Of a stretch of DNA of 63,595 bases, positions 31,399 through 31,978 are shown in pieces. The stretch lies in sequence record MK373795.1; one strand, written 5' to 3'. Source of the DNA: Escherichia phage vB_EcoS_HdSG1. The notes beneath the pieces are model-generated. The model made no database searches, was not told where the DNA came from, and saw only the letters and a list, made by a program, of their open reading frames with translations. Numbering within the stretch: position 1 is the stretch's first letter; every line of letters starts with the position of its first letter. A program made the translations under genes and the position numbers.

Positions 31399-31978
31399 TG
31401 TCTTTTGAAATGAGTAATGAAGACCAGACTGTAACTGTGTACGACTACTCCAATGATACGGGCGAATATGTGGGAACCCGTGAAGCGTATGTGGTGGCCA
31501 ACACAGGTCTTCCAGCATGTTGTACTGATATGGAGCCTCCAGTGGCTCCAGAAAATCATGTGGCAGTATTTAGACCGGAAAGTCAGGTATGGATCCTGCG
31601 TGAAGATCACAGAGGAAAAGTCGTATACGATAAAGATACAGGACTTCCTTTAGTGATAACCACAATTGGATCTCTCTTCCGGATAATGTAACCTATATTG
31701 CTCCCGATGGTGAACACATGAAGTGGAACGGCGATATGTGGGTAAACGATCCGGACGCACAACATGCTAAGTCGGTTGCGGATGCAGCGCAACATAAAAC
31801 GGATCTTCTTAATTTAGCAGATTATAAAATCAGTATTCTGCAAGATGCTGTGACTTATAATCTAGCTACTGACGAAGAAAGTTCGATGCTGGAATCGTGG
31901 AAAAAGTTTCGTGTACTTGTGAACCGCATAAACGAAAATGATCCACAGAATATTATCTGGCCTGAGTCTCCAGAATAA
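31398..31978 (+). pseudogene. tfa: tail fibre assembly protein (Tfa-like) split by a frameshift
   Basis: ORF 31398..31691 resembles a lambda Tfa N-terminus (HRGKVVYDKDTG); ORF 31718..31978 resembles the C-terminus (KWNGDMW...LESWKKFRVLVNRI); second frame is open from 31634; frames meet at TCTCTCT 31671..31677. Confidence 0.5.

Follow-up and report, generated by a model that had tools for sequence, protein, structure and literature searches.

The deposited genome of Escherichia phage vB_EcoS_HdSG1 (sequence record MK373795.1) carries, behind the gene of the side tail fibre (stf), two consecutive open reading frames (ORFs) that both resemble the fibre chaperone Tfa. The question raised by this locus is whether these ORFs are two separate genes, one gene whose two parts still work together, one gene broken in the phage, or one gene broken only in the record. 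The window, i.e. the whole stretch of DNA analysed (63,595 nucleotides), corresponds to the complete HdSG1 genome published by Korf et al. in 2019 (PMC6563267), and HdSG1 is a 9g-like siphophage (Queuovirinae, Nonagvirus). From position 20000 to 44000, a 24-kb region that includes the locus, it is 96–97% identical to Escherichia phages HdK1 and JenK1. Its direct terminal repeat is laid out like that of HdK1 and starts at the same point.

The features of the locus are collected in Table 1. The stop codon of stf overlaps the ATG of tfa (TAATG at 31396-31400), an arrangement that is the same in the relatives, and tfa lies directly downstream of the fibre gene that it serves, as is required of a lambda-type Tfa. 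The 3' part of stf appears in the mechanical ORF listing from a TTG at 29692. The putative terminator is made of AATTATCCGCTG, a 13-nt loop and CAGCGGATAATT, followed by a T-rich tail; the equivalent of this region in HdK1 is annotated as a terminator, and the scan of the + strand for consensus terminators missed it because its loop is longer than 8 nt. Just past it, at 32173-32886, there is a glycine-rich ORF of 237 aa (HdSG1_00046) that ends in a Cys-rich tail (GCCAC); Nonagvirus genomes conserve this ORF, for which no Pfam family is recorded.

Table 1. Coordinates of the stf-tfa locus and of the terminal repeat in the HdSG1 window
Feature	Position	Strand	Remarks
Direct terminal repeat, 3,363 nt	1-3363 and 60233-63595		copies identical
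stf (side/lateral tail fibre), 5' fragment, 689 aa	27681..29750	+	ends 7 nt past the G7 run
stf, 3' part in the +1 frame	29740..31398	+	with the distal receptor-binding end
tfa, 5' fragment (ORF1), 97 aa	31398..31691	+	homology to lambda Tfa 1-93
Original tfa frame, open, without start codon	31634..31717	+	after TAA 31631-31633
tfa, 3' fragment (ORF2), 86 aa	31718..31978	+	Tfa residues 107-192; Caudo_TAP match
Putative intrinsic terminator closing the stf-tfa transcription unit	32016..32060	+	read from the sequence

The two tfa reading frames and the 2-nt insertion

A previous sequence-only reading of the window had proposed that ORF1 and ORF2 match the N- and C-terminal halves of a lambda-type Tfa. 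Both ORFs were found with the lengths and on the strand claimed, and both matches were reproduced. Residues 1-93 of lambda Tfa (orf-194) aligned without gaps with residues 1-93 of ORF1 (44% identity, E 3e-27), and its residues 93-191 aligned, also without gaps, with the second frame (43% identity, E 7e-31). This second frame is open well before ORF2, as had been stated, since an upstream TAA closes it only just before 31634; the lambda match begins at its 15th codon, at 31676 (L-P-D-N-V...). These alignments support the interpretation that ORF1 and ORF2 are N- and C-terminal pieces of a single Tfa, in colinear order. Codons 1-93 of ORF1 are authentic Tfa and are followed by four out-of-frame codons (F-R-I-M) and a TAA. 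The predicted product, which would consist of Tfa residues 1-93 plus these four residues, is an exact match to QBQ81048.1, the 'putative tail assembly protein' of vB_EcoS_HdSG1. Although publicly annotated, this truncated ORF has to our knowledge been discussed by nobody.

Profile searches gave the same picture for the second part. ORF2 scored 83.7 bits on the Pfam family Caudo_TAP (PF02413; profile positions 43-131), where the gathering cut-off is 22.1 bits, the whole frame open from 31634 scored 98.3 bits (profile 17-131) and the intact Tfa of phage 9g scored 111.2 bits (profile 1-131). In the intact 9g protein this domain occupies residues 72-192, and therefore the tfa break falls inside it. 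ORF1 gave no match with the local copy of Pfam; Caudo_TAP_N (PF28596) is precomputed on intact homologues and on the 96-aa ORF1 of JenK1, which falls in the same 90% cluster as HdSG1 ORF1. ORF2 comprises the conserved KWNG..W hairpin and two C-terminal helices, and starts from an internal Met, with GGTGA in front of it. The C-terminal 65 residues of Tfa (128-192) match Mu TfaU (PDB 5yvq, E 5e-9).

The AlphaFold2 model of P0001, an intact homologue, had a pLDDT of 93.9 and contained a beta-rich part at residues 10-116 and helices at residues 118-152 and 158-175. In this model the tfa break maps to a coil flanked by strands 84-86 and 107-109, within the beta-rich part and not at its boundary with the helices (~117). 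A Foldseek search of the model against the PDB returned no match at E <= 0.001, Mu TfaU being absent as well, and therefore the family assignment rests on sequence. According to a published account that cites North et al. (PMC9608196), the helical part of Tfa is a conserved trimerising module and the N-terminal part is the fibre-binding module. HdSG1 shares with the Caudo_TAP family the beta-rich N-terminal part, the conserved C-terminal helical pair and the position of the gene immediately after the fibre gene. However, the members of this family (lambda Tfa, Mu TfaU (PDB 5yvq) and P2 gpG) are single polypeptides of ~175-200 aa, whereas in HdSG1 the frame is interrupted: instead of a single ORF of ~190 aa, a 2-nt insertion leaves one of 97 aa and one of 86 aa. 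By these comparisons, HdSG1 tfa as written is a disrupted member of a well-known family.

The frames had been claimed to meet at a TC dinucleotide run. TCTCTCT is indeed present at 31671..31677, it holds the frame-shifting insertion, and the frames meet there at codon 93/94 (L93/P94). The insertion was delimited with a DNA alignment of 16 tfa sequences, comprising the window, HdK1, JenK1, 9g, PD328, four IMG/VR contigs and seven Logan contigs. Thirteen of these genes are uninterrupted and encode 192 aa; compared with them, the window is longer here by exactly two bases (TC/CT, alignment columns 274-275), which no other sequence of the alignment has. The whole alignment contains three indels, namely this one, a +G near the 5' end in HdK1 and a -1 in JenK1. 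The extra TC was placed in GGATCTCT[CT]TCC. At the break site, the relatives read GGA TCN CTN CCN GAT (G-S-L-P-D) and the window reads GGATCTCTCTTCCGGAT. As predicted, loss of one TC unit restored a single Tfa, of 192 aa, which shares 96% identity with the intact P0001 along its entire length.

The description of the site as a TC repeat holds in part. TCTCTCT is the only dinucleotide repeat of at least three units in this tfa, but it does not represent a pre-existing tract: the relatives have TCTCTT, TCGCTT, TCACTT or TCTCTC at this site, with at most two TC units, and thus the repeat is mostly the product of the insertion. Furthermore, an intact tfa holds 24 two-unit dinucleotide repeats and six N4 homopolymers, and for this reason the break site is not an obvious slippage hotspot. 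Under the mechanism that we propose, replication slippage would most likely have duplicated 2 nt, converting TCTCTT into TCTCTCTT and breaking tfa at codon 93/94.

A natural arrangement with two genes was refuted by the intact homologues, among which the alignment revealed no genuinely separate two-gene layout. Single ORFs of 188-192 aa were found in the 13 aligned homologues, in three metagenome contigs and in ~43 further cluster members. All the members read in the 90% identity clusters had 188-192 aa, except those of HdSG1 (97 aa) and JenK1 (96 aa). A gap-tolerant pattern spanning the site recovered only the intact spacing, in three metagenome and four IMG/VR contigs. Among intact tfa genes the median dN/dS was 0.10, which indicates strong purifying selection. 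The repaired tfa of the window gave values of 0.05-0.13 against its nearest relatives, with no relaxed constraint detectable by dN/dS, and therefore the lesion must be either very recent or absent from the phage.

Nonagvirus Tfa proteins of the P0001 cluster are also filed under assemblies of Shigella sonnei, Shigella boydii and Sulfoacidibacillus, those of Shigella being on contigs of ~58.6 kb. These are probably phage genomes that were carried in, or that contaminated, the sequencing of bacterial isolates.

Regarding the products of the broken gene, no start codon (ATG, GTG or TTG) was found in the ORF listing for the original frame between 31634 and 31717. Therefore, ORF2 can be made only from Met107 (ATG 31718) and residues 94-106, whose codons are in neither ORF, are lost. 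They include the nearly invariant P94 and P102.

The stf lesion and the independent split of tfa in JenK1

The companion claim that stf is also frame-disrupted, at a run of seven G, was upheld. This run (29737-29743) has one G more than in the homologues. At this position gpH of the P2-like phage 9W has G6 and PD328 has GGGGCG. Of all G/C homopolymers in the window, this G7 run, on the + strand, is the longest. Seven of the eight intact fibre proteins compared follow frame 3 up to 29741 and frame 1 from 29740, and the eighth (L016) displays the same frame change, although its alignment stops short of the junction. Residues 1-687 of seven intact Stf relatives are 87-90% identical to the product of the 5' fragment, and residues from 687 to the end align with the 3' part. 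Stf is thus cut at residue 687 of about 1,250, an event that we attribute to a +1 slippage of its own, which would have extended G6 to G7.

Apart from this lesion, the fibre gene is mosaic within positions 29250-30625 of the window. Neither JenK1 nor HdK1 has anything closely similar to the region 29308-30625, and gene H, the tail fibre gene of the P2-like phages 9W and P22H4, shares 76% identity with the region 29250-29914. This similarity points to an exchange between siphovirus lateral fibres and myovirus fibres.

Since Stf itself is cut, Tfa would be a chaperone without a complete client. The products of the split stf and tfa are presumably non-functional, and HdSG1 is predicted to have neither complete lateral tail fibres nor a full-length chaperone. 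From the two lesions together it follows that the phage should lack functional lateral fibres; infection would then proceed via the central fibre and the receptor-binding protein alone.

JenK1 carries the same tfa gene (L002, 4599-5176; 94% DNA identity) split at the same place. Its frame relation is that of HdSG1 and its ORF1 ends at the same stop position. The alignment shows the two annotated 'tail fiber assembly protein' CDS of JenK1 (AKA61063, 96 aa, and AKA61064, 86 aa) to be, as judged from their DNA, one broken gene. Nevertheless, the lesions differ: the HdSG1 insertion of 2 nt is replaced in JenK1 by a 1-nt deletion (-C) located 5 nt, or alignment columns, beyond it. Around the site the tfa of the window is HdK1-like and that of JenK1 is 9g-like, and the two lesions are independent events. 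In addition, only tfa is broken in JenK1, in which stf is intact (1220 aa), whereas both genes are broken in HdSG1. Finally, the ORF1 stop codon TGA of JenK1 overlaps a GTG (GTGA), where a restart is possible, while HdSG1 has GTA there. When the JenK1 ORF2 is called from this GTG it has 96 aa, and therefore only residues 94-96 are lost.

For JenK1, a plaque on K-12 MG1655 was sequenced directly by Illumina MiSeq, at >100x coverage (PMC4505120). Its deletion was reproduced in six independent Logan assemblies (SRR9598210-15; L030-L035), all of them 100% identical to JenK1 over 1.0-3.0 kb. The JenK1 lesion is consequently verified by six further assemblies, and real tfa frameshifts therefore occur in the Nonagvirus clade; in contrast, no further assembly with the HdSG1 lesion was found in the collections searched.

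Mutation in the phage, error in the record and other readings

When the 86 annotated proteins of JenK1 were all searched against the window by tblastn, each shared gene other than stf and tfa gave one full-length match in frame; these two are the only broken genes among the ~84 in common with JenK1. The stf-tfa module comprises 4.3 kb, ~7% of the ~60-kb unique genome. If errors fell at random, the chance that both lesions lay within this module would be ~0.005, and therefore random sequencing error is unlikely. Moreover, because every other shared gene is intact, the error rate of this record must be far below that of HdK1. The two copies of the terminal repeat are identical, but so are those of HdK1 and, therefore, they are uninformative about the error rate.

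The record of the sister phage HdK1 (MK373794; L005/L006) is a case of its own. Thirteen genes are broken in it relative to JenK1, including those for the major capsid protein, the tape measure (twice), DpdA, the primase/helicase and the lysin. Almost all these breaks are insertions of 1-2 nt, many of them next to G, and they resemble sequencing errors spread over the record, possibly in connection with the deazaguanine-modified DNA. With 13 genes broken, essential ones among them, the +G of HdK1 tfa was rejected as a third independent disruption of this gene. The window is free of record-wide gene breakage of this kind.

We consider it probable that the stf and tfa lesions of HdSG1 are recent and most likely genuine, and that they were tolerated or selected on a host that dispenses with the fibres. 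They would then be carried by the phage stock itself and not just by the deposited sequence, and their retention could date from isolation and growth on a host that does not need these fibres. What is published about the group bears on this point. O antigen is missing from every known host of phage 9g, and the authors of the 9g study expect its side fibres to recognise a still unidentified O antigen (PMC4276943); O-antigen recognition has been proposed in the BASEL study for the lateral fibres of Nonagvirus too (PMC8594841). As the hosts of 9g have no O antigen and the side fibres are presumed to be directed to it, fibre loss is tolerable in this group. Propagation on a host without O antigen would accordingly explain how HdSG1 could do without its fibres.

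The main competitor, to which we give a clearly smaller though still appreciable probability, is that the phage has an intact stf and an intact 192-aa tfa, the extra TC and the extra G existing only in the deposited assembly. Both HdSG1 lesions are insertions, and one of them is at the most error-prone site of the genome, its longest G/C run. The damaged HdK1 record, with several 2-nt insertions next to G among its 13 broken genes, comes from the same study, in which PacBio RSII was used for some phages; the main text gives PacBio RSII or Illumina, with the platform per phage unstated (PMC6563267). The lack of relaxed selection in the repaired tfa fits an artefact as well as a very recent mutation. 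In addition, the allele of the window was absent from independent assemblies in the collections searched: exact look-ups of its ORF1 and ORF2 in public assemblies found nothing, nor did a search of IMG/VR with the exact 31-mer of the tfa lesion. Against an artefact stand the integrity of every other gene common to JenK1 and the small chance, given above, that two random errors both fall in the stf-tfa module. Furthermore, a 2-nt insertion in a two-unit repeat is atypical of residual consensus errors, and an independent and verified frameshift is found 5 nt away in JenK1. Loss of the lateral fibres in the phage, an ordinary event as in laboratory lambda, is thus the most likely explanation, and sequencing error is the less likely one.

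The proximity of the HdSG1 and JenK1 lesions (within 6 nt) has a post hoc chance of ~0.02. It is the sole point of the case that goes beyond the ordinary, and it could also be plain coincidence. That the break point is non-random, because of a local mutational hotspot or because a split in this surface coil of Tfa is tolerated or selected, seems to us rather unlikely. For the hotspot, it may be mentioned that the break site contains GATC.

Still less probable is a gene fission, in which both fragments would be translated and would reassemble into a working or altered chaperone. ORF2 would be made by re-initiation at ATG 31718, behind the GGTGA, and the loop formed by residues 87-106 would be a preferred split point. 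If this were true, the N-terminal fibre-binding piece and the C-terminal helical piece would still act together. Two independent lesions, +2 and -1, which lie 5 nt apart and create the same frame relation are what such a process would leave, and the coil position of the break in the model and its simple-repeat content, which marks no obvious slippage hotspot, agree with it. The best case is JenK1, where the GTGA overlap yields the 96-aa ORF2 with the loss of three residues and where the client stf is intact. However, the window has GTA instead, its ORF2 starts only at Met107 without residues 94-106, including P94 and P102, and its client is itself broken, which leaves nothing for the chaperone to fold. 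The cut is also inside the beta-rich part (10-116) and not at the helix boundary, all the uncurated assemblies examined are unsplit apart from the six runs containing JenK1, and two events with the post hoc chance already given are a small sample.

Programmed recoding (a -1/+2 ribosomal frameshift), or a phase variation in which the length of the TC tract switches Tfa on and off, is close to excluded: the frame that follows ORF1 is -1 with respect to it, in the window as in JenK1, and the TC run is followed by a rare CGG codon, but a scan for X_XXY_YYZ heptamers found none throughout ORF1 of either phage, and the intact relatives are single-frame and need no recoding. The heptamer within a conserved two-frame layout that characterises programmed -1 frameshifting was thus not found, and neither was the long, length-polymorphic tract of a contingency locus, as the tract has three units here and at most two in the relatives (TCNCTN), and the spacing is invariant in the uncurated assemblies examined, the six JenK1-containing runs excepted. 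The genuine recoding site of this genome is elsewhere, at 18886-18895 in the tail chaperone gene, where CCCTTTTTTT has its only occurrence in the window. In 9g, a -2 frameshift of the tail assembly chaperone genes is reported to be programmed by this slippery motif (PMC4276943).

Fibre loss in lambda and its probable counterpart in HdSG1

The closest precedent for the fibre loss proposed for HdSG1 is the stf frameshift of lambda PaPa, where orf-401 and orf-314 are the two pieces of stf and tfa (orf-194) follows them. This stf lesion is reportedly absent from the original Ur-lambda isolate (Hendrix and Duda, 1992). In both phages stf and then tfa follow downstream of a J-like tip gene, and lambda Tfa and the HdSG1-type Tfa are 43% identical over their full length. 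The lambda PaPa type, an indel in stf or tfa where the relatives are intact, is what was found here, with 13 tfa and eight stf relatives being intact. However, only stf is broken in lambda PaPa, whose tfa is intact, whereas both genes are broken in HdSG1. Besides, HdSG1 is a virulent Nonagvirus with deazaguanine-modified DNA and lambda is a lambdoid temperate phage. The lesions of HdSG1 may likewise have arisen during propagation.

As deposited, the HdSG1 genome either describes a phage without lateral fibres or is a record needing correction at two sites. This bears on the interpretation of the host range of HdSG1 and on any engineering that uses its fibre module, and it calls for caution among users of the HdSG1, JenK1 and HdK1 records. 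If the lesions are genuine, as we think probable, they would add Nonagvirus examples to the familiar loss of O-antigen-directed side fibres on rough laboratory E. coli.
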